Shown in pieces: positions 1-20,547 of a stretch of DNA of 57,870 nucleotides. This DNA comes from Streptosporangiaceae bacterium. GTDB lineage: Bacteria; Actinomycetota; Actinomycetes; Streptosporangiales; JBOHCT01. Where the stretch lies: contig JBOHCT010000001.1 of NCBI GenBank assembly GCA_050699055.1, positions 1-57,870 on the forward strand, in the 5' to 3' direction. A model generated the notes under the pieces. It did not search any database, was not told the origin of the DNA, and worked only from the letters and a program-made list of their open reading frames with translations. Position 1 is the first letter of the stretch. Every line of letters begins with the position of its first letter. Made by a program: the position numbers and the translations under genes.

Positions 1-22
1 GAGAAGCGAACGGGGTAAGACT

Positions 23-832: not shown

Positions 833-843
833 GGTGCGTTGGG

Positions 844-1536: not shown

Positions 1537-1583
1537 GCGTCGTGCCGTGGTGCCCAGGGTTCGTTCGTCTCATACGTGCCGTA

Positions 1584-1612
1584 TTGACACGGTCTGTGGG
1601 TCCAGTTACTGT
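1584..1612 (+). promoter_or_regulatory. Candidate sigma70-type promoter TTGACA-N17-TACTGT for the 1732-9929 operon
   Basis: TTGACA at 1584-1589, 17-nt spacer, TACTGT at 1607-1612. Lies in an AT-rich island unusual for this GC content, about 120 nt upstream of the MFS start. Confidence 0.5.
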
Positions 1613-1679
1613 ACAAAATATTTCAGGTATTGGATACTTTAAGTACTCGTGTTGTTACGCCTCGGAATGAACGGGTCGC

Positions 1680-1709
1680 GGCCGGGTGATCCTGCGGGAT
1701 CACCCGGCC
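1680..1709 (+). promoter_or_regulatory. Perfect 13-bp stem / 4-nt loop hairpin in the leader of the MFS operon
   Basis: ggccgggtgatcc-tgcg-ggatcacccggcc read directly. 22 nt upstream of ATG 1732. No U-tract. Confidence 0.45.
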
Positions 1710-1731
1710 CACGAGCATCGGAGTACTCGCC

Positions 1732-3192: not shown

Positions 3193-3197
3193 CGACA

Positions 3198-3881
3198 ATG
3201 GTGAGTGGGGACCACATGGCGGAAGACACGCGGCGGATCTACGAGCGGGCTGGGTTCGGTGGGGCGGTCGAGCCCGGTCGGACGCCGGCCCTGCTCGTCG
3301 TCGACTTCAGTCGCGGCTTCACCGACGCCGATAGCCCGCTGGGCTCGGACATGAGCGCCGAGGTGGAGGCCACCCGACGCGTACTGGGCGCGGCCCGCGA
3401 GGTGGGGACGCTCGTCGCTTTCACCAGCATCGCCTACGAGCAGAGCCTGCGGGACGGCGGCGCTTGGCTGCGCAAGGTGCCGAGCCTCGGCCAGCTGACC
3501 GTGGGCTCGCGCTGGGTGGAGCTGGACCCCCGCCTGGGTCGGCGACCCGACGAGCCGATCGTCTACAAGCGGGGGGCGTCGGCGTTCTTCGGCACCCACC
3601 TCGCGGGCCTGCTGGTCGCGGGGCAGGTGGACACGGTCATCGTCACGGGCGCCACGACGTCCGGCTGCGTCCGCGCCTCGGTGGTCGACGCCGTGCAGCA
3701 CGGCTTCCAGACACTCGTGATCCGCGACTGCGTCGGCGATCGCGCCGTGGGTCCGCACGAGGCCAACCTGTTCGACATGGCCGCGAAGTACGCGGACCTC
3801 GTGTCCGCGGAGGAGGCGATGGGGTACCTCCGCAGTGAGAGGGCAGTCGGCTCGCACGCCAGCGGCAGGACACGGACGTAA
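3198..3881 (+). CDS. Isochorismatase-family cysteine hydrolase (N-carbamoylsarcosine amidase / RutB-like amidase)
   Basis: C-terminal part of ORF 2361-3881. D-K-C catalytic pattern: [40 protein letters not shown]. Start ATG 3198 or 3216, 6 nt after the MFS stop. Confidence 0.8.
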
Positions 3882-3894
3882 GGGAGGACACAGC

Positions 3895-4773
3895 ATGGCG
3901 AAGGACATCAAGGTCGTCTACGGGGTCGACATCGACGCGGTCGGCGGTTGGCTCGGTTCGTACGGCGGGGAGGACTCGCCCAATGACATCCAGCGCGGCA
4001 TGTTCGCCGGTGAGGTCGGTGTGCCGCGGATGCTGGAGATGTTCAAGCGGTACGACATTCCGGCGAGCTGGTTCATCCCCGGCCACTCGGTCGAGACGTT
4101 CCCCGACCAGGTCAAGATGATCGTCGATGCCGGACACGAGATCGGCGCGCACGGCTACTCCCACGAGAACCCGATCGCGATGTCGGCCAAGCAGGAGGAG
4201 GACGTCCTCAACCGCTCGATCGAGCTGATCGAGAAGGCCAGTGGCAGGCGGCCGCGCGGCTACGTCGCGCCGTGGTGGGAGATGTCGGCGAACACCGCCT
4301 CGCTGCTGCTGAAGAACGGCTTCACCTACGACCACAGCCAGAGCTACCACGACTTCCTGCCGTTCTACGCGCGCGTCGGCGACACCTGGACGAAGATCGA
4401 CTACTCCAAGGAGGCCGCCGCGTGGATGAAGCCGCTGGATCGGGGCGAGCCGATCGATCTCGTCGAGATCGGCGCGAACTGGTACGTCGACGACCTCCCG
4501 CCGATGATGTTCATCAAGGGCAACCCGAACAGCCACGGCTTCGTCAACCCGCATGACATCGAGGAGCTGTGGCGCGACCAGTTCGACTGGGTGTACCGCG
4601 AGATGGACTACGCGGTGTTCGCGATGACCGTGCACCCCGACGTCAGCGGCCGCCCGCAGGTGCTGATGATGCACGAGCGGCTCATCCGGTACTTCAGCGG
4701 CTTTCCGGGTGTGAGCTGGGTGACGATGGAAGAGGCCGCCGACGACTTCCGTCGGCGTCATCCCTTCGGGTAG
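3895..4773 (+). CDS. Polysaccharide deacetylase-fold (NodB-like) hydrolase
   Basis: [44 protein letters not shown] metal-binding pattern. ATG 3895 lies within ORF 3835-4773. Confidence 0.7.
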
Positions 4774-4866
4774 CGGCGCTGAACGGGTTATCGGGCCCTC
4801 GGTGCGGGTGCCGCGATCGGTCGGTGCGCGGTACCCGGCCCTGCTCGCGGTTGAAGGGACGTCGGC

Positions 4867-6453
4867 ATGCCTGACCTGTTGATCACCGGTGGCACGGTGG
4901 TGGACGGCACCGGGAGCCCTGGGTATCCGGCGACGGTCGCGGTCGAGGGCGACCGGGTGCGGATCGTCCGGGGCAACGGTGAGCTTCCCCCCGCGGGGCG
5001 GGTCGTCGACGCGAGCGGGCTGGTGGTGGCGCCGGGCTTCATCGATATGCACTCCCATTCGGGGCTGATGATCTTCGACGAGCCGACGCATCTGCCGAAG
5101 GTGTCCCAGGGGGTGACGACGGAGCTGATCGGGGTGGATGGGTGCTCGTACGTTCCGTTCACCGACGCGGGGGAGCTGCGGCGGTTCGTGACGTTCAACG
5201 CCGGGCTGGATGGCTGTCCGGAGCTGGCGTACGACTGGGACACCGTGGAGAGCTTCCTCACCCGGTTCGACGGGGCCGTCTCCGTCAACATCGCGTGCCT
5301 GGTCGGCAACTCCGCGCTGCGGATCGCGGCGCTCGGCTGGGACCAGGTGGCGGCCGACGGGCGGGCCGTGGCGGACATGCGGTCGATGCTGCGGGAGGCG
5401 ATCGAGGAGGGGGCGTTCGGGCTGTCGACCGGGTTGGACTACCCGCCGGGCAGCTACGCGTCCACCGAGGAGCTGGGTGAGCTGTGCAGGGAGCCGGCGC
5501 GGGTCGGTGGGCTGTACCACACGCACGTGCGGTACTGGATGGGCGATAAGTTCCTCGACCCGTTCCGTGAGGCGTTCCAGATCGCCCGGATGGGCGGCTG
5601 CCCGCTGCACATCACGCACTTCTACCGCAAGGCCGCCTACCCGCACGGCTCCGGGGTGATGCTCGACCTGGTGGAGGGGGAGGTCGACCGGGGCGCGGAC
5701 GTGACGTTCGACGGGTACCCGTACGAGTGGAGCAGCACCCGGCTGTCGATCTTCCTGCCGCAGTGGATCCAGGCCGGCGGGCCGGAGGCGACGCTCGAGC
5801 GGCTGGCCGACGCCGGCTGCCGGGAGCGGTTCAAGGCCGAGCTGGCCGACACCGACGCCGACGACACGTGGCGGGCGTTCCACGACTGGGTGCGGGTCGG
5901 CTACTTCGCCAGGTCGGAGAACCGCCGCTACGAGAACATGACCATGGGCGCGATCGCCCGCCAGCGTGGCCAGGACGTGGTCGACGCGTTCTTCGACCTG
6001 CTGGTCGAGGAGAGGCTGCGGATCACCGAGGTCCACCCAGGACCGACCGGGCCGACGCTGGCGAAGTTCTTCCAGCACCGGCTCGGCATGGTCGGCACCG
6101 ACTCGGTGTTCATCGGCGACAGGCCCAGCCCGCGGACGTACGGGTCGTTCCCGCGCATCCTCGGGGAGTTCGTCCGCGAGGAGTCGTTCCTCTCCCTGCC
6201 CGAGGCGGTCCGCAAGTTCACCTCTTTCCCGGCGCAGCGGCTCGGCCTGCCCGACCGTGGCATCCTGCGCGACGGGTTCGCCGCCGACATCACCGTCTTC
6301 GACCCCGAGCGGGTGCGCGCCGTCGCCACCTACGACCGGCCACGCCAGCAGTCCGTCGGCGTCGAGTACGTCATCGTCGGCGGCACCGTCGTCCTCGATC
6401 GCGGCAAGCACACCGGAGCCCTGCCCGGACGATCGCTGCGGCGGGGGCGGTGA
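4867..6453 (+). CDS. N-acyl-D-amino-acid deacylase (D-aminoacylase) family amidohydrolase
   Basis: 528 aa. DLLITGGTVVDGTG...VAPGFIDMHSHS N-terminal amidohydrolase signature. Family-typical length. Confidence 0.75.
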   Translation: MPDLLITGGTVVDGTGSPGYPATVAVEGDRVRIVRGNGELPPAGRVVDASGLVVAPGFIDMHSHSGLMIFDEPTHLPKVSQGVTTELIGVDGCSYVPFTDAGELRRFVTFNAGLDGCPELAYDWDTVESFLTRFDGAVSVNIACLVGNSALRIAALGWDQVAADGRAVADMRSMLREAIEEGAFGLSTGLDYPPGSYASTEELGELCREPARVGGLYHTHVRYWMGDKFLDPFREAFQIARMGGCPLHITHFYRKAAYPHGSGVMLDLVEGEVDRGADVTFDGYPYEWSSTRLSIFLPQWIQAGGPEATLERLADAGCRERFKAELADTDADDTWRAFHDWVRVGYFARSENRRYENMTMGAIARQRGQDVVDAFFDLLVEERLRITEVHPGPTGPTLAKFFQHRLGMVGTDSVFIGDRPSPRTYGSFPRILGEFVREESFLSLPEAVRKFTSFPAQRLGLPDRGILRDGFAADITVFDPERVRAVATYDRPRQQSVGVEYVIVGGTVVLDRGKHTGALPGRSLRRGR

Positions 6454-6459
6454 CGGCCC

Positions 6460-7221
6460 GTGGGTTCGCTCGACGGGAAACTGGCGGGAAAGGCCGCGGT
6501 CGTCACGGGGGCGGCCAGCGGCATCGGGGCGGCGGTCGCCGTCGCGTACGCGGCGGAGGGCGCGACGCTTTTGCTCGCGGACCGCGACCGGGCGAGGGCC
6601 GAGGCGACGGCGGAGCGGTGTCGGGGCACCGGGGCGAAGGCCGTGGCCCGCGAGGTGGACGTCACCGATGAGCGCTCCACCCGCGACATGGTCGGGGATG
6701 CGATCGCGGAGCTGGGCGCCGTCCACGTGCTCGTCAACTGCGCCGGCATCCTCACCGAGGTTCCCCTGGTCGAGATGGACGTGGCGACCTGGGACGAGAT
6801 GATCGCCACCGACCTGCGCAGCGTGTTCCTCTGCTGCCGGTGGGCGGTGCCGCACATGGTCGAGCGGCGGTGGGGCCGGGTGGTCAACATCGCCAGCCAG
6901 CTCGGCATCAAGGGCGGTGAGAGCCTTGTCCACTACTCGGCGGCCAAGGCCGGCGTGATCGGCCTGACCAAGGCGCTCGCCAGGGAGGTGGCGCCCTACG
7001 GCGTGCTGGTCAACGCGATCGCCCCTGGCCCGATCGAGACGCCGCTGACCGCGGGGATCAGCGACGAGTGGCGCGCGGCCAAGCGGGCGGAGCTGCCGCT
7101 CGGCCGGTTCGGCGTCCCCAAGGAGGTCGCGCCTACCGCCGTGCTGTTGGCGAGCGACCCCGGCGGGAACCTCTACGTGGGGCAGACCCTCGGCCCGAAC
7201 AGCGGCGACGTGATGCCGTGA
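6460..7221 (+). CDS. SDR-family oxidoreductase (FabG-like)
   Basis: TGAASGIGAA cofactor motif, NCAG, YSAAK active-site motif. 253 aa. Confidence 0.85.
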   Translation: MGSLDGKLAGKAAVVTGAASGIGAAVAVAYAAEGATLLLADRDRARAEATAERCRGTGAKAVAREVDVTDERSTRDMVGDAIAELGAVHVLVNCAGILTEVPLVEMDVATWDEMIATDLRSVFLCCRWAVPHMVERRWGRVVNIASQLGIKGGESLVHYSAAKAGVIGLTKALAREVAPYGVLVNAIAPGPIETPLTAGISDEWRAAKRAELPLGRFGVPKEVAPTAVLLASDPGGNLYVGQTLGPNSGDVMP

Positions 7222-7234
7222 AGGGGGTGCGGGT

Positions 7235-8497
7235 GTGGCACGGTACGTGAGCATCGACCGGGACCGCAGCGCGGAGCGGATCGGCCGCGACATCGACACG
7301 CTCGGCGGAGCGGCGTACACCTCGTCGCCCCGCGCGATCCGCCGGTACGCCTACATTGGGGAGTACCGGGCCACGCTGGACTTCTTCGTCACGCGGCTCC
7401 GGAGCCTCGGCTTCGGGGTGGACGAGGATCCGGTCGGCAACCTGGTGGCGCGCAACCGGCCGCACGGCGAGCCGGTCTTCGGGATCGGGTCGCACTGCGA
7501 CTCCAACCGCAACGGGGGCAGGTACGACGGCACGATGGGCGTGGTCACCGCGCTCGAGGTGTGCCGGCTGAACGCCGAGCTCGGCCTCGACCTTCCGCTG
7601 CAGCTGATCTCGTTCCTGGAGGAGGAGGCGTCCGGCTTCGGTCAGCTCCTGCTCGGCAGCCGGATCATGGCCGGCCGGGTCGACGAGGCCGAGCTGCGTG
7701 AGCGATCACGTGCGATTGACGACGGCCGGACCTTCTGGGAGCACGCGAAGGAGGCTGGGTACGAACCGGCGCGGTGGCGGGAGTCCGCGCGGGCGCTGGA
7801 CGACCTCGTCGGCTGGATCGAACTGCACATCGAGCAGGGCAGGGTGCTGCAGGACACCGGGGACCGCATCGGGATCGTCGGCTCGATCGCGGGGTGCCGG
7901 CACGGTGACGTCGAGGTACGCGGGCGCGCCGACCACGCCGGCGCCACCCCGATGGATGCCCGGCAAGATGCGAGCACGGTCGTGGCTGAATGCGTCCTGG
8001 AGCTCGAGCGGCTGGCCCGCGAGGCGTCGCGTACCGCCCCGACCGTCGGGACGGTCGGCGACATCGCGCTGGACCCGGGCATCATCAACGTCGTCCCAGG
8101 GCGGGCGGGCTTCACAATGGACATCCGCGGGGTCGCCGACGAGGTGTTCCGCGGCGTGTTCGACGACATCGCGGCCTTCGCCCGCGGCGCCGCGCGGCGG
8201 CGGGGGATGACCGCCGAGGTCCGCGAGCGGCAGCTCGTCCCGGCCACCCCCATGGACGAGCGGGTCATGGGCGCGATCGAGGACGCGGTACACACGGCCG
8301 GCGAACCGTACCGCACCATGCATTCAGGCGCGGCTCACGACACGATGTGCGTCGCCGACCGCGTTCCGACCGGCATGATCTTCGTGCCGTGCAGGGACGG
8401 GCTCAGCCATGTGCCGGAGGAGGACGCCGACCCCGCCGACGCGGCCGTCGGCGCGGAGGTGATGCTGAACGCCATCGCCGCGCTCACCGGCGGGTGA
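7235..8497 (+). CDS. M20-family amidase (N-carbamoyl-L-amino-acid hydrolase / allantoate amidohydrolase type)
   Basis: 420 aa. GSHCDSNRNGGRYDGTMGVVTALEV, ELHIEQG, GAAHD motifs typical of AmaB/AllC-type Zn hydrolases. Confidence 0.8.
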   Translation: MARYVSIDRDRSAERIGRDIDTLGGAAYTSSPRAIRRYAYIGEYRATLDFFVTRLRSLGFGVDEDPVGNLVARNRPHGEPVFGIGSHCDSNRNGGRYDGTMGVVTALEVCRLNAELGLDLPLQLISFLEEEASGFGQLLLGSRIMAGRVDEAELRERSRAIDDGRTFWEHAKEAGYEPARWRESARALDDLVGWIELHIEQGRVLQDTGDRIGIVGSIAGCRHGDVEVRGRADHAGATPMDARQDASTVVAECVLELERLAREASRTAPTVGTVGDIALDPGIINVVPGRAGFTMDIRGVADEVFRGVFDDIAAFARGAARRRGMTAEVRERQLVPATPMDERVMGAIEDAVHTAGEPYRTMHSGAAHDTMCVADRVPTGMIFVPCRDGLSHVPEEDADPADAAVGAEVMLNAIAALTGG

Positions 8498-8528
8498 CCG
8501 CGAGGTCGAGACACGAGGAGGCACCGAC

Positions 8529-9929
8529 ATGTCCGTACTCATCAAGGGCGGCCGCATCATCACCGCCTCCGACGACTACGTCGCCGACATCTACATCGAG
8601 GACGAGGTCGTCTCCGCCGTCGGCAGCGACCTCGACGTCACCGCCGACGCGGTCGTCGACGCGTCGGGCAAGTACGTCCTGCCGGGGATGGTCGACCCGC
8701 ACACGCACATGGAGATGCCGTTCGGCGGCACGGTCACCTGCGACGACTTCACCTCGGGCACGACGTCGGCGGTCTTCGGCGGCACGACCGCGATCGTCGA
8801 CTTCTGCATGCAGCAGTCCGGGCAGACCCTGCCCGAGGCGCTGGAGACGTGGCACGAGAGGCTGCGGCGCGCTCCCGCGGTCGGCGACGTGGGCTTCCAC
8901 CTGGCCGTCACGAACCTCGACTACCCCGGCGCGCTCGACGACCTCGCGGCCATGCCCGAGCAGGGGGTGACGAGCTACAAGTTCTTCATGGCCTACAAGG
9001 GCACGATCATGGTCGAGGACGAGACGCTGTTCAAGGCCATGCAGGTCGTCGCCAGGTCCGGGTCGCTCGCGATGGTCCACGCCGAGAACGGCGACGTCGT
9101 CGACGTCCTCGTCAAGGAGGCTCTCGCCGAAGGCAAGACCGAGCCGAAGTGGCACGCCGCGACCCGCCCGCCCACCGTCGAGGGCGAGGCGACGAGCCGC
9201 GCGATCCAGCTCGCCCACCTCGCCGGCTGCCCGCTGTACGTCGTCCACGTCTCCTGCCGGGAAGCGATCGACCCGATCGGCGCGGCGCGGCGGCAGGAGT
9301 GGCTCACGTGGGGCGAGACCTGTCCGCAGTACCTCTTCCTGGACAGCGGTGCGCTGGACCAGCCGAACTTCGAGGGCGCGAAGTACGTCTACACCCCGCC
9401 GTCGCGGACCAAGGCAGATCAGGAGGCGCTCTGGCGGGCGCTGTCGACGGACGTGCTCTCAGTCGTGTCGACCGACCACTGCCCGTTCAACTGGGACGGC
9501 CAGAAGAGCCTCGGCGCCGACGACTTCTCGAAGATCCCGAACGGCGGTCCAGGCATCGAGGATCGGTTGCACCTCATCCACGACCGCGGTGTACGGGCCG
9601 GCCGCATCTCGCTGAACCGGATGGTCGAGCTGTTGTCGACGAACCCCGCCAGGCTGTTCGGCCTCTATCCGCGCAAGGGCACGATCGCCGCGGGTTCCGA
9701 CGGCGACATCGTGATCTTCGACCCGGAGCGGCCGCATCGCATCTCAGCGAGCACGCACCATTCCAGGGTTGACTACAGCCTGTTCGAGGGCGAGGAGGTC
9801 GTCGGGACTCCCGAGGTGGTCCTGGTACGCGGGCGTATCGTCGTCTCCGGCGGGGAGCTGCGGGTCGAGCCGGGCCACGGGCGGTTCGTGCACCGCGGCG
9901 TTCCCGCGGTGAGCCTCGCGCCCGCCTGA
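8529..9929 (+). CDS. hydA: Dihydropyrimidinase / D-hydantoinase
   Basis: 466 aa. PGMVDPHTHMEMPFGGT, GGTTAIVDF, carbamylated-Lys context SYKFFMAYKG, VSTDHCPF. Confidence 0.9.
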   Translation: MSVLIKGGRIITASDDYVADIYIEDEVVSAVGSDLDVTADAVVDASGKYVLPGMVDPHTHMEMPFGGTVTCDDFTSGTTSAVFGGTTAIVDFCMQQSGQTLPEALETWHERLRRAPAVGDVGFHLAVTNLDYPGALDDLAAMPEQGVTSYKFFMAYKGTIMVEDETLFKAMQVVARSGSLAMVHAENGDVVDVLVKEALAEGKTEPKWHAATRPPTVEGEATSRAIQLAHLAGCPLYVVHVSCREAIDPIGAARRQEWLTWGETCPQYLFLDSGALDQPNFEGAKYVYTPPSRTKADQEALWRALSTDVLSVVSTDHCPFNWDGQKSLGADDFSKIPNGGPGIEDRLHLIHDRGVRAGRISLNRMVELLSTNPARLFGLYPRKGTIAAGSDGDIVIFDPERPHRISASTHHSRVDYSLFEGEEVVGTPEVVLVRGRIVVSGGELRVEPGHGRFVHRGVPAVSLAPA

Positions 9930-9963
9930 GCTTCGGCCGTGTACAGCCTGAGCGGGTCAGGGA

Positions 9964-10791
9964 TCAGGGCTTGCGGCCGACCGCCGCGTAGAACCACGAC
10001 CCGGCGCGGCTCTCGGGCCCTGGCGGCGTGTCGGGGCGCCAGTCCTGCAGGACGACCAGGCCGGGGTCGACGAGCTCGAAGCCGTCGAACAGGCGCAGGA
10101 GCTGGTCCCGGCTGCGCAGTGTTATCGAGGACGTAGCGCGATCGTAGACCTGGGTAAGTCCGCCCGCTTTCTCCTCGACGAAGGTCGTTCCGTGGGATAG
10201 GACCAGGTAGCTGCCAGGCGCGATGGCGTCCCGGATTGTCGCGATGATTCGCGCGGCGTCCGCGTCGTCGGGGACGAAGTGCAGCACGGACACGAGCAGC
10301 ACGGCGACCGGCTGGTCGAGGTCGATGTGGGCCCGCAGGCCGGGCTCGGCGAGGATCTCCGCCGGGTCGCGCATGTCGCCCTCGACCACGACGGTCTGGC
10401 TGTCGGTGGCCAGCAGGGCCCGGGCGTGGATGAGGACGACGCCGTCGTTGTCGACGTAGACGACCCGGGAATCCGGGCGGGCCGCCTGCGCGACCTCGTG
10501 GGTGTTCTCCTGGGTGGGCAGGCCGGTGCCGATGTCGACGAACTGCCGGATGCCCGCCTCACCCGCCAGGAACCGCACCGCCCGGCCGAGGAACGCCCGG
10601 TTCTCCCGCGCGACCACGCGCGCCTCCGGAACCGTCTCCAGCATCTTCGCCGCCGTCTCCCGGTCGGCGGCGAAGTTGTCCTTGCCGCCGAGGTAGTAGT
10701 CGTACATGCGGGCCACGTTGGGCGTGCGTACGTCGACCCTGTCGCGGGGGGCTGCGTTGCCTGGGGAGGACGGCCTGCCGTCGTCGGTCAT
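9964..10791 (-). CDS. SAM-dependent methyltransferase (DUF574 family)
   Basis: ARMYDYYLGGKDNFAADRE...FVDIGTGLPT, typical of the actinomycete S-adenosyl methyltransferase family. Confidence 0.8.
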   Translation of the reverse strand: MTDDGRPSSPGNAAPRDRVDVRTPNVARMYDYYLGGKDNFAADRETAAKMLETVPEARVVARENRAFLGRAVRFLAGEAGIRQFVDIGTGLPTQENTHEVAQAARPDSRVVYVDNDGVVLIHARALLATDSQTVVVEGDMRDPAEILAEPGLRAHIDLDQPVAVLLVSVLHFVPDDADAARIIATIRDAIAPGSYLVLSHGTTFVEEKAGGLTQVYDRATSSITLRSRDQLLRLFDGFELVDPGLVVLQDWRPDTPPGPESRAGSWFYAAVGRKP

Positions 10792-10918
10792 GACCGGAAT
10801 GCTACGCTCCGTGTCGGCCTCGCGGGCCCGGACCGGCCGAATGGGACCGCCAACCGTCGAACTCGGTTCCTCAGAGGCCGGCGGCGCGGCGCGCTCCTCA
10901 TGGGCGCCGGGAGCGCTC

Positions 10919-11914
10919 TCAGCCGCGGCCGCCGAAACCGACAGCCGCGAAGGCGTCGTCGATCCGATCCCGGTCCGCGCCGCGGGTGAGCAAAAGGGTG
11001 AGCAGCAGCCGCGCCTTGAGCCCGTCGAGAGTTCCGGCGCTCACCAGCCCGCGGGACAGCAGGTCGAGCTCGCCGCCCGGGAAGCCGTAGGTCTCCCGCA
11101 GCATCTCCCCTGACCCGGTGCGCGAGGCGAGCACTACCGGCATGCGCGCGGCCAGGTCCGCCAGCGGCGCGACGAACCGCTCGGGTACGTGGCCGCCGCC
11201 GTACGCCTCGACGACGACCCCGTCGTACCCGCCTGACGCGGCGCAGTCGAGCAGGCGGGGGTCGTCGCCGAGGACCAGCCTCACCAGCGCGACCGTGGCG
11301 GGCGGCGCGTCCTCGGCCACCGGCAGCCGCGGGTACGGCGCCGGACGGGCCGCGAGTCGGACCCGACCCTCGCTCACCCATCCGATCGGCCCGGTCGGTG
11401 CGGAGCGGAACGTCGCGGGGTTCGACGTGTGCGTCTTCCGCACGAACCGCGCGGCGTGGATCTCGTCGTTGAACACCACGAGCACGCCGACCCCCCGCGC
11501 TGCCTCGCTCGCCGCCACCTGGACGGCGGCGAGAAGGTTCGCGGGCCCGTCGGCCCCCGGCAGGCTGGGGTTGCGCATCGCGCCGGTGATCACGACCGGG
11601 GGGTCGAGGTCGTACAGCAGGTCCAGGGCGAACGCCGTCTCCTCCAGCGTGTCGGTGCCCTGGGTGACGACGATCCCTCGGGCGCCCGCGTCGACCTGGC
11701 GACGTGCCTCGGCCGCGAGGGCGAACAGGTCGCTCAGGGTGAGCTCGGGCGAGGGAAACTGCCGAAACGACAGCCCTCGGACGTCCGCGACCTTGTCCAG
11801 GCCGGGTACGGCGGCGACGAGGTCATCGGCGGTCAGGGTGGGCTTGGCGCCGGGGCCGGACGCGTCGGGGACCGACGCGATCGTTCCACCCATCGTCAGC
11901 ACGGCCACGCGCAT
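10919..11914 (-). CDS. L-asparaginase (type I-like)
   Basis: VLTMGGTIAS, VVTQGTDTLEETA, ITGAMRNP motifs. 331 aa. Confidence 0.85.
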   Translation of the reverse strand: MRVAVLTMGGTIASVPDASGPGAKPTLTADDLVAAVPGLDKVADVRGLSFRQFPSPELTLSDLFALAAEARRQVDAGARGIVVTQGTDTLEETAFALDLLYDLDPPVVITGAMRNPSLPGADGPANLLAAVQVAASEAARGVGVLVVFNDEIHAARFVRKTHTSNPATFRSAPTGPIGWVSEGRVRLAARPAPYPRLPVAEDAPPATVALVRLVLGDDPRLLDCAASGGYDGVVVEAYGGGHVPERFVAPLADLAARMPVVLASRTGSGEMLRETYGFPGGELDLLSRGLVSAGTLDGLKARLLLTLLLTRGADRDRIDDAFAAVGFGGRG

Positions 11915-12009
11915 CAGGCTCGCCCCCAGGCATGGGAAGGACCGCGTCCGAGTGTTTCGAATACGATATACAAAACCTAGGCGGCGGCGGTGGCGACCGT
12001 CAAGCGTCC

Positions 12010-12789
12010 CTACCGCTCGCCCCGAACCGGCGGCTGGAACTGATGGCGGACTCCCGCCGCCGGTTCGTCGTCGTCGGCCGCCCAGGCCTCGGCCAGGACC
12101 TCCTTCTCCAGGTGCGCGACGAGCAGCGTGCCGGCGTGCATGATGTGCTCACGCATGGCCTTGCGTACGTGTTCGGGGTCGCGGGCCTCGAGGCCGTCGA
12201 GGATCGCGGCGTGGTCGGCGACGGACGCCTCCACCCACCCGTGGATGGTGCCCCAGAACCGTCGTGGCGCGTAGCGGGTCGCCACCCGCAGCAGCCACGC
12301 GAGCTTCGGCGAGTGCGCCAGCAGGTTGATCCGCCGGTGGATGAGGAAGTTGAGCTGCTCGATGTCCGCGGCCCCGTCTCGCTCGGACGCCGCCTCCAGC
12401 TGCGTCTGCAGCGTGCGAAGCTCGCCTACCTCCGCGTCGGTGATGTGCGCGGCGGCCCGCGCGGCGAGCTCGCCCGCGATCTCGCTCTGTACCCAGAACA
12501 GGTCCACCACGTCGGCCTTCGACAGCGGCGCCACGACGAACCCCCGGCGCGGCTCCAGCTGGACGAACCCCTCGCCGCGCAGCAGGACGAGCGCCTCGCG
12601 TACGGGTGTCACGCTCATCTCCAGCATGTCCGCCATGTGGTCGAGGCGGATGAAGGTGCCGCTGGGCAGCTGCCCAGACATGATCATGTCCCGGATGTAG
12701 GAGGCCGCCTCATCGCTGAGCTGAGCGCGGTGCATCCGTGTACCCAAGCCCGCACCACGGTCAGGCGACCCCGTCCACTGATCGTTCAT
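12010..12789 (-). CDS. GntR-family transcriptional regulator with FCD domain (FadR subfamily)
   Basis: wHTH MADMLEMSVTPVREALVLLRGEGFV followed by an all-helical C-terminal domain. Divergent from the acyl-CoA dehydrogenase gene. Confidence 0.8.
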   Translation of the reverse strand: MNDQWTGSPDRGAGLGTRMHRAQLSDEAASYIRDMIMSGQLPSGTFIRLDHMADMLEMSVTPVREALVLLRGEGFVQLEPRRGFVVAPLSKADVVDLFWVQSEIAGELAARAAAHITDAEVGELRTLQTQLEAASERDGAADIEQLNFLIHRRINLLAHSPKLAWLLRVATRYAPRRFWGTIHGWVEASVADHAAILDGLEARDPEHVRKAMREHIMHAGTLLVAHLEKEVLAEAWAADDDEPAAGVRHQFQPPVRGER

Positions 12790-12969
12790 GGCAATCCGCT
12801 CCGCTCACTGGCGACCGGAGACCCTGCCGTCGCCGTGCCGCCACCGTGCCGCCATAGGGCCGCCATAGGGCCATGTCACGCCTTCGGCACGCACCCGGAA
12901 GCGTACTGAAGCGTACGGTGACATTTTCCCACCCGGCGGGGTAGTCCTCCTACAGACTGAAGGGTAGGC

Positions 12970-12986
12970 TCATATAAGTTATATGA
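12970..12986. promoter_or_regulatory. 17-bp AT-rich perfect palindrome TCATATAAgTTATATGA (operator/promoter candidate)
   Basis: Read directly. 60 nt upstream of the ATG at 13046, in the divergent GntR/ACAD intergenic region. Confidence 0.4.
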
Positions 12987-13045
12987 AACCACGCTGCGGA
13001 TTCAAGAGAGGCGGATGCTCGCGCAGCACAGCCTAAGGAGGCGCC

Positions 13046-14197
13046 ATGCCGCACCTCAGCGATGAGGAGCGGGCCGTCATCGGTGTGGTCACGGAGTTCG
13101 TGGACGAGAAGGTCCGTCCGGCGGTCGGCGAGCTCGAGCATTCCGACACCTACCCGGGCGAGCTGATCGACCAGATGAAGGACCTGGGGGTGTTCGGGCT
13201 CGCCATCCCCGAGCCGTACAGCCCGGCCGCGGTGTCCACGTCGTGCTTCGCGCTGGTGACCGCCGAGCTGGCACGCGGCTGGATGAGCCTGGCCGGCGCG
13301 ATGGGTGGGCACTCGGTGGTCGGCCGGCTCATCGCCGCCTTCGGCACCCAGCCGCAGAAGGACGGCTACCTGGCGGCGATGGCGGCCGGGGAGATCCGCG
13401 CGACGATGGCGCTGACCGAGCCCGGCGGCGGGTCCGACCTGCAGGCGATGCGGACCGTCGCCCGAAGAGAGGGCGACGCGTACGTCGTCGACGGCACCAA
13501 GATGTGGATCACGAACGCCCAGCACGCAGACGTGGTCGCGCTGCTGTGCAAGACCGACCCGGCCGCGGACCCGCCGCACGAGGGGATCAGCATCCTCCTC
13601 GTGGAGCGGGGGCACGGTTTCACCGTGTCGCGGAAGCTGTCCAAGCTGGGCTACAAGGGCGTGGAGAGCTGCGAGCTGTCGTTCGACGACTGCCGCGTAC
13701 CCACGGACGCGTTGCTCGGCGGTATCGAGGGCCAGGGCTTCGCGCAGATGATGGAAGGCCTGGAGACAGGCCGGGTCCAGGTGGCGGCCCGTGCCGTCGG
13801 CGTCGCCCAGGCGGCCTTCGACGACGCCCTGCGCTACGCACAGGAGCGGGAGGCATTCGGCAAGCCGATCTGGCGGCACCAATCCATCGGCAACTACCTC
13901 GCCGACATGGCCACCGACCTGCACGCCGCCCGGCTGCTGCTGCTCGACGCCGCCGACAAGCTCGACACCGGCGCCCGCTGCGACCTCGAGGCCGGCATGG
14001 CCAAGCTGTTCGCCTCCGAGGCGTGCATGCGGATCAGCCTCGACGCGATGCGCATCCACGGCGGCTACGGGTACTCCACCGAGTTCGACGTCGAGCGCTA
14101 CTTCCGCGACGCACCGCTCATGATCATCGGGGAGGGGACGAACGAGATCCAGCGAAACGTCATCGCCAAGCGACTGATCGAACGAAACGGCCTGTGA
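13046..14197 (+). CDS. Acyl-CoA dehydrogenase
   Basis: 383 aa. ALTEPGGGSDL, KMWITNA, RIHGGYGY, IGEGTNEIQR motifs. Good SD (aaggagg) upstream. Confidence 0.9.
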   Translation: MPHLSDEERAVIGVVTEFVDEKVRPAVGELEHSDTYPGELIDQMKDLGVFGLAIPEPYSPAAVSTSCFALVTAELARGWMSLAGAMGGHSVVGRLIAAFGTQPQKDGYLAAMAAGEIRATMALTEPGGGSDLQAMRTVARREGDAYVVDGTKMWITNAQHADVVALLCKTDPAADPPHEGISILLVERGHGFTVSRKLSKLGYKGVESCELSFDDCRVPTDALLGGIEGQGFAQMMEGLETGRVQVAARAVGVAQAAFDDALRYAQEREAFGKPIWRHQSIGNYLADMATDLHAARLLLLDAADKLDTGARCDLEAGMAKLFASEACMRISLDAMRIHGGYGYSTEFDVERYFRDAPLMIIGEGTNEIQRNVIAKRLIERNGL

Positions 14198-14270
14198 CCG
14201 CCCCCTCTTTGCCGATCTCGAGGCCCGGCTCGCAGGCTTCGGCGGGATGGGGTCGAGAGAGGGAGTAGAT

Positions 14271-15110
14271 ATGACGGTCGTACGTGCGGCCCTGGTCCAG
14301 AGCGCATGGACCGGCGACAAGGACTCGGTGATCAAGAAGAGCGTCGACCACGCGAGGCAGGCGGCGTCGCGGGGTGCGAAGGTGCTGTGTTTCCAGGAGC
14401 TGTTCTACGGGCCGTACTTCTGCCAGGTCCAGGACCCGGCGTATTTCGACTACGTCGAGGCGGTCCCCGACGGCCCCACAACCCGGCTGATGTGCGACCT
14501 GGCCCGGGAGACCGGGATGGTGTTGACCGTGCCCGTCTACGAGGTGGAGCAGCCGGGCGTGTACTACAACACCGCGGCGGTCATCGACGCCGACGGCACG
14601 TACCTCGGTAAGCACCGCAAGAACCACATCCCGCAGTTGCCGGGCTTCTGGGAGAAGTTCTACTTCCGTCCGGGCAACCTCGGCTACCCGGTCTTCGACA
14701 CGGCGGTGGGCCGGATCGGCGTGTACATCTGCTACGAGCGCCACTTCCCCGAGGGCTGGCGCGCGCTCGGGCTGGCCGGCGCACGGATCGTCTTCAACCC
14801 GTCCGCCACGAGCCGCGGGCTGTCCTCGCACCTGTGGCGGCTGGAGCAGCCGGCGGCCGCCGTCGCGAACGGCTACTACGTCGGCACGATCAACCGGGTC
14901 GGCGTCGAGCCGTTGGGCGACGACGACTTCTACGGCACGTCGTACTTCGCCGACCCGCGCGGGCAGCTCGTCGGGGAGGCGGCGTCGGACGCTAGCGACG
15001 AGGTGATCGTCCGCGACCTCGAGATGGACCTGATCGACGAGGTCCGCAAGGAGTGGCAGTTCTACCGCGACCGCAGGCCGGACACCTACGCCCCGCTGAC
15101 GGTCCCGTGA
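14271..15110 (+). CDS. Carbon-nitrogen hydrolase, beta-ureidopropionase / N-carbamoyl-amide hydrolase type
   Basis: Nitrilase-superfamily E-K-C pattern: CFQELF, GKHRKNHIP, GVYICYERHFPE. ATG 14271 lies within ORF 14247-15110. Confidence 0.8.
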   Translation: MTVVRAALVQSAWTGDKDSVIKKSVDHARQAASRGAKVLCFQELFYGPYFCQVQDPAYFDYVEAVPDGPTTRLMCDLARETGMVLTVPVYEVEQPGVYYNTAAVIDADGTYLGKHRKNHIPQLPGFWEKFYFRPGNLGYPVFDTAVGRIGVYICYERHFPEGWRALGLAGARIVFNPSATSRGLSSHLWRLEQPAAAVANGYYVGTINRVGVEPLGDDDFYGTSYFADPRGQLVGEAASDASDEVIVRDLEMDLIDEVRKEWQFYRDRRPDTYAPLTVP

Positions 15111-15157
15111 TCGCGAACGCTTTCCCCTGCTATAGGGCGGAAGAGTGTTCGCGATCA
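15108..15157 (+). terminator. Stem-loop (11-bp perfect arms tgatcgcgaac / gttcgcgatca, 28-nt loop) overlapping the stop codon of the C-N hydrolase
   Basis: Arms at 15108-15118 and 15147-15157, read directly. No clear U-tract. Confidence 0.35.
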
Positions 15158-15236
15158 TGGGGCGGGGCCGTGTGGTGGTGTACTCCGAGGTCGCCCCGCC
15201 GGCCCACGTGGTGATCGCGCTCGCCGTGCCCCGCGG

Positions 15237-15294
15237 TTGTATGGGCCCTGGTTAGGTTGTACATTACTGGAGTAGTGAACCATCTAACCAGGGC
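15237..15294 (+). promoter_or_regulatory. Candidate promoter TTGTAT-N17-TACATT embedded in an 11-bp perfect inverted repeat (gccctggttag ... ctaaccagggc)
   Basis: IR arms at 15245-15255 and 15284-15294. -10-like TACATT at 15260-15265. Ends 12 nt upstream of the YtrA-type GntR start. Confidence 0.45.
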
Positions 15295-15306
15295 GGTGGG
15301 GCGGAG

Positions 15307-15690
15307 GTGTTCGTGCTCGACGAGGGAACGCCCCTGTTCGCGCAGATCGCGGAGCAGCTCGCCGACGACATCGCCGACGGGAGCCTGGCCGAGAGTGCGC
15401 GTGTCCCTTCGAGCAACGAGTTCGCCGCTTTCTACCGGATCAACCCGGCCACCGCGGCGAAGGGCATCAACGTGTTGATCGACGACGGGCTGCTGGAGAA
15501 GCACCGCGGCATCGGCATGTTCGTCGCCGCCGGCGCACGCGAGCGGTTGCTCGCCGACCGCCGCAAGCGGTTCGCCGAGCAGTACCTCGACCCGATGCTC
15601 GCCGAGGCCAAACGGCTCGGCATCGACACCGACACCCTGGTCTCCCTGGTCCGGGGATCCAGCCACACGGGCGGAGGCAGCACACCATGA
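15307..15690 (+). CDS. GntR-family transcriptional regulator (YtrA subfamily, short C-terminus)
   Basis: 127 aa. PLFAQIAEQLADDIADGSL...VPSSNEFAAFYRINPATAAKGINVL. Overlaps the downstream ABC ATPase by 4 nt. Confidence 0.85.
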   Translation: MFVLDEGTPLFAQIAEQLADDIADGSLAESARVPSSNEFAAFYRINPATAAKGINVLIDDGLLEKHRGIGMFVAAGARERLLADRRKRFAEQYLDPMLAEAKRLGIDTDTLVSLVRGSSHTGGGSTP

Positions 15691-16574
15691 CCCCGACGAT
15701 CTCCGCGGTGGGCCTGACCCGCAGGTACCGCGACCAGCTCGCCCTCGACGACGTCACGGTCGACATCGAACCTGACACCATCACCGGGCTGCTGGGCCGC
15801 AACGGCGCGGGCAAGAGCACCCTCATGCGCGTCGTCACCGCGCAGGAGTTCGCCACCGCCGGCACGGTGCGGGTCTTCGGCGAGGACCCCGTGGAGAACG
15901 ACGCCGTGCTGCGCCGGATGGTCTTCGTCCGCGAGGACCAGGTGTTCCCCGACTTCAAGGTCAGGCACGCCATCCAGGCCGCCTCATGGTTCTATCCGAA
16001 CTGGAGCGCCGAGCTCGCCGACACGCTGCTCGCGGACTTCGACCTGCCGTCGAACCGGGCCATCAAGAAGCTCTCCCGCGGGATGCGCTCCGCGCTGTCC
16101 ATCGTCATCGGCCTGGCGGGCAGGGCCGAGCTGACGTTGTTTGACGAGCCCTACGCGGGTCTGGACGCGGTGGCGCGACACCTGTTCTACGACCGGCTGC
16201 TCGCCGACTACGTCCAGCACCCGCGAACGGTGCTGCTGTCCACCCACCTGATCGACGAGGTCGCCGGCCTGCTGGAGCACGTGGTGATGATCGACCGGGG
16301 ACGGATCGTGCTGGACGCGCCCGCCGACGAGGTACGCGGGAGTGCGGCCACCGTCAGCGGGCCCGCGGCGGCGGTCGAGGAGTTCATCGCCGGGCGCCGC
16401 GTCTGGCATCGCCAGACGATCGGGTCGCGGACCTCGGTGACCGTCGCCGGGTCCTTGGACGACAGCGACCGGGCCAGGGCGCGCGAGCTGCGCCTGAGCC
16501 TGGAGCCGCTGTCGCTGCAGCAGCTGATGGTGCACACCTCCGGCCGACCGATGAACGAGAGGGTGAGCGCATGA
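15687..16574 (+). CDS. ABC transporter ATP-binding protein (ABC-2 type)
   Basis: Walker A GRNGAGKST, signature LSRGMRS, Walker B LTLFDEPYAGLD. Confidence 0.85.
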   Translation: MTPTISAVGLTRRYRDQLALDDVTVDIEPDTITGLLGRNGAGKSTLMRVVTAQEFATAGTVRVFGEDPVENDAVLRRMVFVREDQVFPDFKVRHAIQAASWFYPNWSAELADTLLADFDLPSNRAIKKLSRGMRSALSIVIGLAGRAELTLFDEPYAGLDAVARHLFYDRLLADYVQHPRTVLLSTHLIDEVAGLLEHVVMIDRGRIVLDAPADEVRGSAATVSGPAAAVEEFIAGRRVWHRQTIGSRTSVTVAGSLDDSDRARARELRLSLEPLSLQQLMVHTSGRPMNERVSA

Positions 16575-17260
16575 GCACGCTCGTCAACGTGGCCCGCTAC
16601 CACCTGGTGGACCGGATACCGTACCTGCTGCTGCCCTGGGGTGCCACCGCGTTCGCCTTCTTGGTGAACCTGGTCGTCTTCGCGGCGGTCGCCACCCCAT
16701 CCGACGGTGCGTACAGCGGCGGGCTGATAACGCTCTACGTCATCCTGTTCGTTCTTGGCGTGCTCAGCGTCGCCAGGTCGCTGCCGTTCGGGTTCGCCCT
16801 GGGGCTGAGCCGCCGCTCCTACTACCTCGGGACCGTCCTGCTGGTGGGCGGGCTCGGGGCGGTCTACGGCCTGGCCGTGGCCGTGCTGCAGGTCGTCGAA
16901 CGCGTCACCGGCGGGTGGGGGCTCACTATGCACTTCTTCCGGGTCCCGTGGATCCTCGACGGGCCGTGGTATCTGACCTGGCTGACGTCCTTCGTGGTGC
17001 TGGCACTCCTGTTCGTCTACGGCATGTGGTACGGCCTGGCGTACCGGCGGTGGGGCATCATCGGCCTCGCGGTGTTCATCGCCACCCAGGTGATCGTGCT
17101 GGTCGCGGTGGCACTGGTCCTGACCTGGGCGGGCGCCTGGCCCGAGGTCGGGCGCTTCTTCGCCACCCTGAGCGCGGCCGGGCTGACCGGGGTGCTGGCG
17201 GCGATCGTGGCCCTGCTGGCGTTCGGTGGGTTCACCACGATGCGTCGGGTCACCGTCTGA
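16571..17260 (+). CDS. Integral membrane protein, probable permease partner of the ABC ATPase
   Basis: 229 aa, about 6 hydrophobic segments. 4-nt overlap with the upstream ATPase. Confidence 0.65.
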   Translation: MSTLVNVARYHLVDRIPYLLLPWGATAFAFLVNLVVFAAVATPSDGAYSGGLITLYVILFVLGVLSVARSLPFGFALGLSRRSYYLGTVLLVGGLGAVYGLAVAVLQVVERVTGGWGLTMHFFRVPWILDGPWYLTWLTSFVVLALLFVYGMWYGLAYRRWGIIGLAVFIATQVIVLVAVALVLTWAGAWPEVGRFFATLSAAGLTGVLAAIVALLAFGGFTTMRRVTV

Positions 17261-17301
17261 CCCGCCGCGCGATCACGGAGGCCCTGGGGTCGACCGTGCG
17301 G

Positions 17302-17649
17302 TCACGCCCCGGCGATGTGCTCGGGTCGTACGGGTACGCGGGTGAGAGGGTGGCCGGTCGCCGCGCGGACGGCGGCGACGATCGCGGGGGTCGAGGAGAT
17401 CGTCGGCGGCTCGCCGACGCCGCGCACGCCGTACGGCGCGTGCGGGTCGGCGAGCTCCAGTACGTCGAGCGTCATCGGCGGCATGTCGAGGATCGTCGGG
17501 ATGAGGTAGTCGACGCCCGCCAGCGCGGTACTCACGGTGAGGTCACTGATCTCATGCCGCGGGGTGTCGCGGGCGACGTGCACGAGGCGGACCTCCGCCT
17601 TCCCGTACTGGTTGGGGCCGAGGGCGACGCCACGTCCCACCGGAGCCAC
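17302..17649 (-). pseudogene. Chimeric remnant: uricase N-terminus (~36 codons) fused in frame to the C-terminus (~78 codons) of a xanthine dehydrogenase/aldehyde oxidase Mo-binding subunit
   Basis: LGPNQYGKAEVRLVHVARDTPRHEISDLTVSTALAG matches the uricase N-terminal signature. DYLIPTILDMPP...YGVRGVGEPPTISSTPAIVAAVRAATGHPLTRVPVRPEHI matches the XDH large-subunit C-terminus. Starts 5 nt after the uraH stop. Confidence 0.75.
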
Positions 17650-17654
17650 GGTCC

Positions 17655-17978
17655 TCAGCTCCCTCGGTAGATGGTATAGCCGTACGGGCTGAGCAACAGT
17701 GGCACGTGGTAGTGCTCGCCCTCCCCGGCGGAGAAGGAGATGGCTACCTCGGGGAAGAAGGCCCCTTCCCCGAGGTACCGCGCGGTGGCGAAGACGAGCC
17801 GGCAGGTCGCGGGCGCCTCGGGCAGCTCGGGGAGACCGCCGCAGCGGCCGTCGACGCCGGTCACCGCGCTCGCGACCCGGCGCCAGCCGTCTCCGTCACG
17901 TACCTCGAGGGTGACGGAGACACCGGCGGCCGGGCAGCCCCGCGCGGTGTCGAGGACGTGGGTCGACACGCTGGTCAT
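17655..17978 (-). CDS. uraH: 5-hydroxyisourate hydrolase (transthyretin-like)
   Basis: 107 aa. STHVLDTARGCPAAGV...HYHVPLLLSPYGYTIYRGS C-terminal signature. Confidence 0.9.
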   Translation of the reverse strand: MTSVSTHVLDTARGCPAAGVSVTLEVRDGDGWRRVASAVTGVDGRCGGLPELPEAPATCRLVFATARYLGEGAFFPEVAISFSAGEGEHYHVPLLLSPYGYTIYRGS

Positions 17979-18502
17979 TCGCTTGCCAGTCCCTCCAGCC
18001 GGAGGCGGTTGATCGTGCGTAGCTCCTCGCGTGCGACCTCCCGCTCGGTGGCGGGATCATGGTCGAGACGCGCCCGCAGGGCGGCGAGCATCTCCTCGGC
18101 CGAGCGGCCACTCGCGCGGATGAGGAACACGTGCCCGAACCGCGCCTCGTACCGGCGGTTCGCCTCCCGCAGCGCGGCCCGTACGCCCTCGCCGGTCTCG
18201 ACGGCGCCCGCCTGCTCTCGCCGCGACCTCTCGTGGTCGGCGGGCTCGCCGATGCGGGCGTGTCTGGCCAGCGCCTCGGCGAGCCCCCGCGCGTCCAGTC
18301 TGGCCACCGCCGCGTCCGACGCGGCACAAAGATCACCGGCCGATGTGTACGGCCGGGCCTCGACAAGCGTACGGACCCAGGACTCGGCCGCACACACGGC
18401 GCGCAGCGTGGCCGCCGCCTCGGCCGCCTCCGCGTCGTTCAGCGCCGACAGGCCGGGGGTGCCGGAGCTTCCCGGCCGCGGGTGGCGCGTTTCCCCTGAC
18501 AC
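17975..18502 (-). CDS. uraD: 2-oxo-4-hydroxy-4-carboxy-5-ureidoimidazoline (OHCU) decarboxylase
   Basis: HARIGEP, FGHVFLIRASGRS motifs. 4-nt overlap with uraH. Confidence 0.85.
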   Translation of the reverse strand: MSGETRHPRPGSSGTPGLSALNDAEAAEAAATLRAVCAAESWVRTLVEARPYTSAGDLCAASDAAVARLDARGLAEALARHARIGEPADHERSRREQAGAVETGEGVRAALREANRRYEARFGHVFLIRASGRSAEEMLAALRARLDHDPATEREVAREELRTINRLRLEGLASE

Positions 18503-18508
18503 CGTGCG

Positions 18509-19321
18509 TCAGCCGGCGTCGCTGGTCAGGGCGTCCGCGAGGCGCGCCGCGGTGGACTTCATCACCGGCGCGATCTGCTCCCACGTGGTCTCCGTGAGGC
18601 GGGTCGCCGGCCCGGACACGGAGATCGCCGCCATCGTCGGCGCGCCGAGCACGGGTACGGCCACGCACCGAACGCCGACCTCCTGCTCGCCGTCGTCGAG
18701 GGCGAACCCGCGCCCCCGAACGTGCTCGAGCTCACCGAGCAGGGCGTCCATATCGGCGATGGTGTGCGGCGTCTGGGACGGCATCCCGGTACGGCGCAGC
18801 AACTCCCGCACCTCCGCGTCCGGGAGCTGGGACAGCAAGGCCTTGCCGACACCTGTGCAGTGGGGCATCACCCTGCGTCCGACCTCCGTGAACATCCGCA
18901 TCGCGTGCCTTGAAGGCGCCTGGGCGACGTAGACGGCCTCGTCGCCGTCGAACATGGCGAGGTTCGCGGTCTCGCCGGTGGCCTCGACGAGCTCCGCGAG
19001 GTACGGCTTGGCCCAGTCGCCCAACATCCGGCCCGCCGCCTCACCGAGACGGATCAGTCTCGGGCCGAGCGCGTAGTTGCGGGACGACGGCTCCCTGCGG
19101 GCGAGACCCCGGCTGGTCAGCGTCCGCATGAGACGGTGGGTCGTCGGCAGCGGCAGGCCCGAGGCCGCGGACAGCTCGCTCAAGCCCATCTCGCCGCCCA
19201 CGTCGCACATCAGCTCCAGCAGATCGATGGCGCGGTCGACGGTGCGTACGGTGTGGGTGCCTGAGGTCCCCCGTCGGGCCGTGCCCTCACTGCCTCCGCG
19301 TGGGGCACCGCCTCGTGGCAT
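18509..19321 (-). CDS. IclR-family transcriptional regulator
   Basis: N-terminal wHTH VDRAIDLLELM...LSELSAASGLPLPTTHRLMRTL and a C-terminal IclR effector domain. Confidence 0.85.
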   Translation of the reverse strand: MPRGGAPRGGSEGTARRGTSGTHTVRTVDRAIDLLELMCDVGGEMGLSELSAASGLPLPTTHRLMRTLTSRGLARREPSSRNYALGPRLIRLGEAAGRMLGDWAKPYLAELVEATGETANLAMFDGDEAVYVAQAPSRHAMRMFTEVGRRVMPHCTGVGKALLSQLPDAEVRELLRRTGMPSQTPHTIADMDALLGELEHVRGRGFALDDGEQEVGVRCVAVPVLGAPTMAAISVSGPATRLTETTWEQIAPVMKSTAARLADALTSDAG

Positions 19322-19563: not shown

Positions 19564-20010
19564 CTGACATTCCCCGGTGCCTTGATCGACCTCGCCGCCC
19601 GCGCGCTCGGCGGGAGCGTCGTCGCCGCGAACGACGCGTTCTTCGCCGAGAAGGAGAACCTGCTGAAGCCGCAGGCGCCCGTCTTCGACCCGTACTCCTA
19701 CGGGCACAAGGGCAAGGTCATTGACGGCTGGGAGACCCGCCGCAGACGTGCGCCGGGCCACGACTGGGTGATCGTCCGCCTCGGCGCGGCCGGTGTGGTG
19801 CGCCGGGTCGTCGTGGACACGTCGTTCTTCACGGGCAACTACCCCGAGTTCTTCACGGGCAACTACCCCGAGGAGTGCACGGTCGAGGCGTGCGCGGTGG
19901 AGGGGTACCCGAGCCCGGCCGAGCTGTCCGGCGACCGCGTCGAGTGGGTCGAGCTGATGCCCCCCTCACCCCTCGAGGGGGACGCACACAACGAGTTCGC
20001 CATCGAGGTC
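19564..20010 (+). pseudogene. Allantoicase, N-terminal fragment only (first repeat domain), with an internal 24-bp tandem duplication
   Basis: LIDLAARALGGSVVAANDAFFAEKENLLKP...DGWETRRRR...VVVDTSFFTGNYPE matches the allantoicase N-terminal half. Homology stops at about 20010. No canonical ATG/GTG start (CTG 19564 / TTG 19582). Confidence 0.7.
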
Positions 20011-20095
20011 GCGCGTCCCACAGCTCCGTCGCGGTCGGGGTGGACGAGAGCGTCGCCGTGGCCTCGCCGTCGGGCCAGGACAGTCGTACGCGCAT
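20011..20095 (-). pseudogene. N-terminal fragment (~28 codons) of a cyclophilin-like-fold protein
   Basis: MRVRLSWPDGEATATLSSTPTATELWDA resembles the start of cyclophilin-like (DUF3830 / Cyclophil_like) proteins. The rest of ORF 19853-20095 is antisense to the allantoicase fragment. Confidence 0.4.
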
Positions 20096-20169: not shown

Positions 20170-20547
20170 ATGAGCATACGGACGTTCATCAACGGCACGA
20201 CGATGTCCGGCGGCGCGACCCATCACTACCTGCGGGGCGCCCCTCTGCTCGCCCGCATCCGGACAGCGCCCAAGTACCGCCTCTATGCCGTGCGGGACTC
20301 CTTCCCCGGGCTCGTACGAGACGACGACGTGGGCGTCGCCGTGGAGGGGGAGCTCTACGAGCTGTCGTACGAGGTCATGCGGGACTCTCTGATGCCCAGC
20401 GAGCCCGCGGATCTGGAGCTCGGTCTGATCGAGGTGGAGGACGGGCGCGGGGCGTTCGCGATGTTCCTGCGTCCTGGGGTGGCGGACCGCCCGGACGTCG
20501 TCGAGATCTCCCACTTCGGCGGATGGCGAGCGTACGAGCGGCGTTAG
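20170..20547 (+). CDS. Gamma-glutamylcyclotransferase-like protein (allophanate-hydrolase C-terminal-domain family)
   Basis: [21 protein letters not shown]...[14 protein letters not shown]...GELYEL pattern. ATG 20170 lies inside the composite ORF 19582-20547. Confidence 0.6.

Follow-up and report, generated by a model that had tools for sequence, protein, structure and literature searches.

The window considered here, that is, the whole stretch of DNA that was analysed, is 57,870 nt long and constitutes an entire contig (C1) of a Streptosporangiaceae MAG of 4.18 Mb, 332 contigs, ~90% completeness and 4.9% contamination. Its minus strand carries a string of four reading frames that begins with an IclR-family regulator gene (18509-19321), continues with uraD (OHCU decarboxylase; 17975-18502) and uraH (5-hydroxyisourate hydrolase; 17655-17978), and ends with a chimeric ORF of 115 codons (17302-17649). 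The uraD and uraH products both give full-length Pfam and NCBIfam matches above the curated cut-offs, and the C-terminal YRGS of UraH is present. The ORF opens with a GTG codon 5 nt past the uraH stop, with Shine-Dalgarno-like bases (GGGAG/GAGGA) upstream. Converging on it from the other side is a plus-strand operon (15307-17260) for a GntR regulator, an ABC ATPase and a 229-aa membrane protein without a Pfam match, with 41 nt between the stops of the operon and the ORF. A promoter and terminator scan was uninformative in this 70% GC DNA.

The ORF consists of a uricase remnant (codons 1-45; 17515-17649), in which the native start region and the LGPNxYGKAE motif are kept, a junction codon, and the last 69 codons and native stop of a xanthine dehydrogenase (XDH) Mo subunit (17302-17511), which begin with DYLIPTILDMPP and include the GVGEPP motif. 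When the two halves were scored separately against NCBIfam, residues 11-45 aligned with positions 3-38 of 283 in the urate_oxi model TIGR03383 (E 4e-7), and residues 46-112 with positions 689-754 of 763 in the pucD model TIGR03196 (E 7e-20); the tail half also matches other XDH-family models, at their extreme C-termini. Judged by these profile scores, both matches are far above chance, and each is a terminal piece of its family model only. The tail ends on the native XDH stop, reading PEHIAGA before the stop codon where relatives read PEHISCG or PEHITGSS. The stub shares 51-74% identity (mean 60%) with the uricase N-termini of relatives; for the tail, identity is 75-82% to the XDHs syntenic with uricase in order-level relatives and reaches at most 91% to metagenomic XDH tails. 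The first-pass annotation, made from the letters of the window, had taken the N-terminus for uricase, the rest for the extreme C-terminus of an XDH large subunit, and the start, 5 nt after uraH, for the place where uricase belongs; the profile alignments bear out the two identifications, and the coordinates, together with the gene order of relatives, bear out the third.

By score, the ORF falls outside both families. It reaches 27.6 bits with TIGR03383 against a cut-off of 168.4, 13.3 bits with the Pfam Uricase model (PF01014) against 25, and 69.9 bits with TIGR03196 against 783.65, and none of the Pfam XDH domains PF01315, PF02738 and PF20256 is found on it at E<=1, all three of which are seen in intact relatives. 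Like the factor-independent urate oxidases (TIGR03383, PF01014), it has a genuine uricase N-terminus in its native place after uraH; unlike them, it lacks both complete T-fold domains and all later active-site parts, the stub amounting to only about the first two beta-strands of the T-fold. Its last 69 codons are likewise a genuine C-terminus with a native stop, as in the pucD/XdhA-type XDH Mo subunits (TIGR03196, NF043082), but the ORF has lost the a/b hammerhead, MoCoBD_1 and nearly all of MoCoBD_2; of the XDH Mo domain it retains the closing segment, and the entire molybdopterin-binding body is gone.

The position that the ORF occupies, directly after uraD and uraH, is that of uricase in two relatives' genomes (G031 and G005) and at more than 20 metagenome loci. 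The genes of G031 run uraD-uraH-uricase (288 aa)-xdh Mo subunit (764 aa)-permease, and the uricase stop overlaps the xdh start. G005 and 15 metagenome loci share the arrangement uraD-uraH-uricase-FAD subunit-(FeS subunit)-Mo subunit, tightly packed on a single strand. Relatives thus carry the intact, co-oriented uraD-uraH-uricase...xdh arrangement that the first-pass annotation had proposed as a point of comparison. Among the 20 loci that hold both genes, the ortholog of the XDH tail lies downstream of uricase and in the same orientation in 18, so that the two halves of the ORF are terminal pieces of collinear, co-oriented genes, as in deletion-derived chimeric pseudogenes. Recreating the ORF from such loci would mean removing 2,828-9,338 nt, with a median of 4,209 nt. 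As the nearest whole-genome relatives stand at the level of the order, the exact ancestral operon and the size of the deletion are given as a range; a metagenome scan with UraD found no closer relative, its best match being 53% identical. In one relative (G003), the syntenic xdh Mo-subunit gene (L025, G003:C158) carries an in-frame TGA at about 8885-8887, ~178 codons before its end, possibly an independent inactivation or else a sequencing error.

Since uricase and the xdh Mo-subunit gene are co-oriented and collinear at 18 of the 20 loci, a single deletion of ~2.8-5.9 kb would suffice to explain the ORF. The ancestor would have carried, on one strand, iclR-uraD-uraH-uricase-(xdh FAD subunit-xdh FeS subunit)-xdh Mo subunit, and a deletion of roughly that size would have taken uricase from codon 46 onward, any xdh small-subunit genes between, and the Mo-subunit gene up to about codon 690. 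The ends would have been joined in frame by chance (1 in 3), such that the uricase start signals now lead via 45 uricase codons and the junction codon into 69 XDH codons and the native stop. The loss presumably took place in one event that then went to fixation in the population.

Alignment with six relatives places the joint at G45 (17517-17515)/V46 (17514-17512)/D47 (17511-17509). Here, the uricases of relatives read ...ALxG-D-[FLM]... and their XDHs ...NPSFT-DYLIPTILDMPP..., where the window has ...STALAG-V-DYLIPTILDMPP...; the peptide across the junction is ...STALAGVDYLIPT.... The V46 codon (GTC) is like neither parent, for the corresponding position is D in 49 of 50 uricases and E in the other, and T in all 113 of 113 XDH tails. 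A plain join of the two parental sequences leaves V46 unaccounted for, a small point against the reading of the ORF as a deletion scar, and the codon could represent filler bases or a later point change. No repeats, IS elements or microhomology were found at the junction as it now stands, the ancestral sequences being gone. The first-pass annotation had put the junction at about 17515-17525 and from about codon 37. The lower edge of that range fits the alignment; the codon number does not, having been counted from L10 and not from the start of the ORF.

If most of uricase and the body of an XDH were deleted, the missing parts should not reside elsewhere in the genome, and in this MAG they do not. 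With the proviso that ~90% completeness makes no absence absolute, the 332 contigs hold no other uricase match, no uricase fragment past codon 45 and no orthologous XDH body, as expected of a pseudogene that has lost its internal parts. No full-length uricase is encoded at the locus or elsewhere in the MAG; one at the locus would have undone the first-pass reading. Neither a PuuD-type urate oxidase nor a pucD-type Mo or FAD subunit ortholog was found in the MAG, where the best matches to these subunits are 30-33% identical; an ortholog of the xanthine/uracil permease is kept on another contig. Seven other XDH-family Mo subunits are encoded in the MAG, and these are only 34-42% identical to the tail of the ORF. 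A resident paralog was considered as the source of the tail, through recombination or misassembly, and was rejected on the grounds that the best candidate reaches 42% identity at the protein level and 70% at the DNA level. That the tail is closest to the XDHs syntenic with uricase and far from the seven paralogs marks it as what is left of a separate gene since lost.

A second broken gene of the pathway lies 2 kb from the chimeric ORF. On the plus strand, an allantoicase remnant (19582-20013) retains repeat 1 only (profile positions 1-126 of 155); the second allantoicase repeat is absent in all frames, and the MAG has no other allantoicase match. The frame of this remnant extends over 156 nt without homology and then enters an intact AH_C-domain gene (allophanate-hydrolase C-terminal/GGACT-like; 20170-20547, plus strand, ATG at 20170). 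Within the remnant, a perfect 24-nt head-to-tail duplication (19824-19871) doubles the conserved FFTGNYPE motif. A short minus-strand frame (20014-20095; MRVRLSWPDGEATATLSSTPTATELWDA...) adjoins the allantoicase breakpoint; a cyclophilin-like identity was entertained for it and set aside, there being no relevant Pfam match and no tblastn hit in relatives or the MAG, although the frame is too short to decide. With no other uricase, no orthologous XDH and half an allantoicase, the purine pathway of this organism is therefore decaying, and uraD and uraH, though still intact, appear to be orphaned.

Because the source is a fragmented MAG and the junction is known from assemblies, the possibility that the whole junction arose as an assembly or sequencing artefact, through a chimeric read or a graph misjoin in an organism with intact uricase and xdh genes, deserves consideration. 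An exact-protein look-up with UraH retrieved a Logan contig of 3,532 nt (SRR27067734_82234) that is collinear and gapless with window positions 20967-17436, and shows zero differences from 20967 to 17472, i.e. across the junction and 43 nt beyond. The junction is thus very probably no scaffolding artefact and is known here from two assemblies; where the first-pass annotation had envisaged that a corrected assembly might restore a full-length uricase, the independent assembly instead repeats the junction base for base. Logan contigs are built as a k=31 graph of the reads of run SRR27067734, in which uricase and XDH could be falsely joined only over a common 30-nt overlap. No such repeat or common k-mer flanks the junction, which argues against an artefact in this assembly as well. 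The absence of uricase past codon 45 and of the orthologous XDH body from the 332 contigs, the fact that the join follows the gene order of the ancestor, as a random misjoin would not, and the independent truncation of a second pathway gene nearby all speak in the same direction, and render an artefactual junction a highly improbable account of the locus.

A subtler concern attaches to the sequence just beyond the junction. All 7 differences between the Logan contig and the window fall in a 19-nt patch, 17471-17453 (minus strand; L111 3497-3515), within the last 36 nt of the Logan contig and inside a motif conserved among XDHs, which reads KIEVLEY in the Logan contig vs TLDVLEL in the window. 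At least one assembler's path through this conserved motif is wrong or mixed, and the patch probably reflects a second pucD-type XDH allele in the sample that forms a bubble in the graph. One might suppose, then, that the junction is real and contig C1 is mis-joined just downstream, the uricase stub being linked in reality to the KIEVLEY allele; in that event, the last ~57 codons of the tail and positions 1-17470 would come from a different strain or organism, one with the 43-nt conserved stretch in its own XDH. The pattern of the Logan contig, identical through the junction, then divergent in 17471-17453 and ending at 17436, is in line with such a mis-join, and the three genes directly to the left (15307-17260) were not found in SRR27067734 by exact-protein look-up. 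More broadly, the left-flank membrane protein, ABC ATPase, GntR regulator and CN-hydrolase have no exact-protein match among the contigs of this run. Against it, composition is the same for the left part, the right part and the rest of the MAG: the two sides of the junction have GC contents of 0.700 and 0.701, and their tetranucleotide profiles correlate with that of the remaining MAG at 0.994 and 0.996, where 0.992 ± 0.003 is typical. Genes of both contig flanks, moreover, occur in the run, the left one being represented only by an ACAD gene farther out (13046-14197). MAG assemblers normally use k>43 together with read pairs and so resolve a shared stretch of 43 nt, which the k=31 of Logan does not, and this again weighs against an error on the side of the window. 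On this evidence, a mis-join downstream of the junction is unlikely. Were it true, with the window following the false branch, the 17.4 kb at the left end of the contig would derive from a different genome, and the uricase-XDH deletion scar itself would still stand.

The remnant shows little sign of age. For this comparison, 20 relatives that hold all four segments (uraD, uraH, stub and tail) were used. With the uraD+uraH distance as the yardstick (mean 49% identity for the window), the stub stands at 60% identity where pairs of intact relatives lead one to expect 57%, and the XDH tail at 77% where 74% would be expected at the same distance. At columns that are >=95% invariant in relatives, there are 0 deviations in the stub and 0 in the tail, as compared with 1 in uraD (P82A, in the HPxIG motif) and 1 in uraH (T103I, before YRGS); as many or more such deviations are seen in 22-26% of relatives, which places uraD and uraH within the normal range. 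The two substitutions themselves, A in UraD where 83 of 85 relatives have P in HPxIG, and I in UraH where 75 of 78 have T just before the C-terminal YRGS, are not statistically unusual. That no decay is detectable in stub, tail, uraD or uraH indicates that the deletion was recent relative to the depth of the lineage.

An undecayed open frame also invites the question of whether the hybrid is a functional product. The ORF could well be co-transcribed, and even co-translated, with uraD and uraH, and a case for a functional small protein whose frame is held by selection can be built from the open frame, the native start signals and stop, the 5-nt gap to uraH, and the lack of substitutions at near-invariant columns. 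Such a protein, its translation coupled to uraH, could act on XDH-family paralogs via its C-terminal segment, or could stabilise the uraD-uraH message. However, an in-frame join is expected by chance in 1 of 3 cases, and recency explains the lack of decay equally well, uraD and uraH being likewise unchanged. The tail is only 34-42% identical to the resident paralogs. A single-sequence AlphaFold prediction, itself weak evidence, gave no confident fold (mean pLDDT 38.5; 111 of 115 residues <50). Nor is a similar chimera found elsewhere: among 5.8 billion proteins, all 587 matches cover the tail only, at 57-60% of the chimeric query, and one that reaches 71% (P0014) is likewise a plain tail; an exact-protein look-up of the whole chimera returned no match. 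A selected, functional hybrid is accordingly an extremely improbable explanation, and the missing domains together with the lack of a confidently predicted fold suggest that the ORF is a non-functional remnant.

Short ORFs that consist of the XDH C-terminal tail alone do occur on very long contigs and in complete genomes (P0046, P0048, P0049 and P0061), examples being one of 85 aa in Phytohabitans flavus and one of 81 aa on a 306-kb contig; these may be split or truncated xdh genes. It is also tempting to speculate, though with very little confidence, that a hybrid translated through coupling to uraH and kept open by selection constitutes a 115-residue micro-protein, a uricase beta-hairpin followed by the C-terminal segment of XDH, that has acquired a new role; it might, for instance, dock onto the seven XDH-family enzymes of the organism or interfere with them, or shield the uraD-uraH transcript. 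In a milder form, the conjecture would have uraD and uraH kept for 5-hydroxyisourate that is made without uricase.

The reading that best accommodates these findings, with a probability of roughly 85%, takes the ORF for a deletion scar, a leftover of a purine-catabolic operon that has no function. According to this scheme, uraD and uraH would be intact orphans left behind by a recent event, with the truncated allantoicase gene marking the loss of the pathway as a whole. The first-pass annotation had likewise seen a deletion scar, in which most of uricase and of the xdh operon was lost and the frame stayed open, and that proposal has gained support from homology, synteny, the missing parts and the second assembly. 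In kind, the ORF does not differ from other chimeric (fusion) pseudogenes made by deletion in bacteria, in which loss of the intervening DNA joins the 5' part of one operon gene to the 3' part of another in the same orientation; this one is unusually clean, being in frame, undecayed and accompanied by a second scar 2 kb off. A parallel is offered by the hominoids, in which pseudogenization of uricase relaxed the constraint on the downstream URAH and URAD enzymes (PMC13751858). In both cases, the first enzyme of uricolysis is gone and the HIU hydrolase and OHCU decarboxylase are left without the usual source of their substrate. Unlike the hominoid loss, however, the bacterial one described here came about by a multi-kb deletion that also removed xanthine dehydrogenase, and the downstream genes look intact.

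The case is one of ordinary deletion-driven pathway loss caught early, clean and recent, and holds little surprise. For annotation, it means that the ORF should be recorded as a pseudogene remnant and not as a 'hypothetical protein' or a 'xanthine dehydrogenase family protein'. For metabolic inference, neither oxidation of xanthine by the lost XDH nor oxidation of urate by uricase should be credited to the organism, despite the presence of uraD and uraH. The locus thereby offers a snapshot of the order in which a purine-catabolic pathway is dismantled, with the upstream enzymes XDH and uricase and the downstream enzyme allantoicase already broken, and the middle genes and their regulator intact and undecayed.
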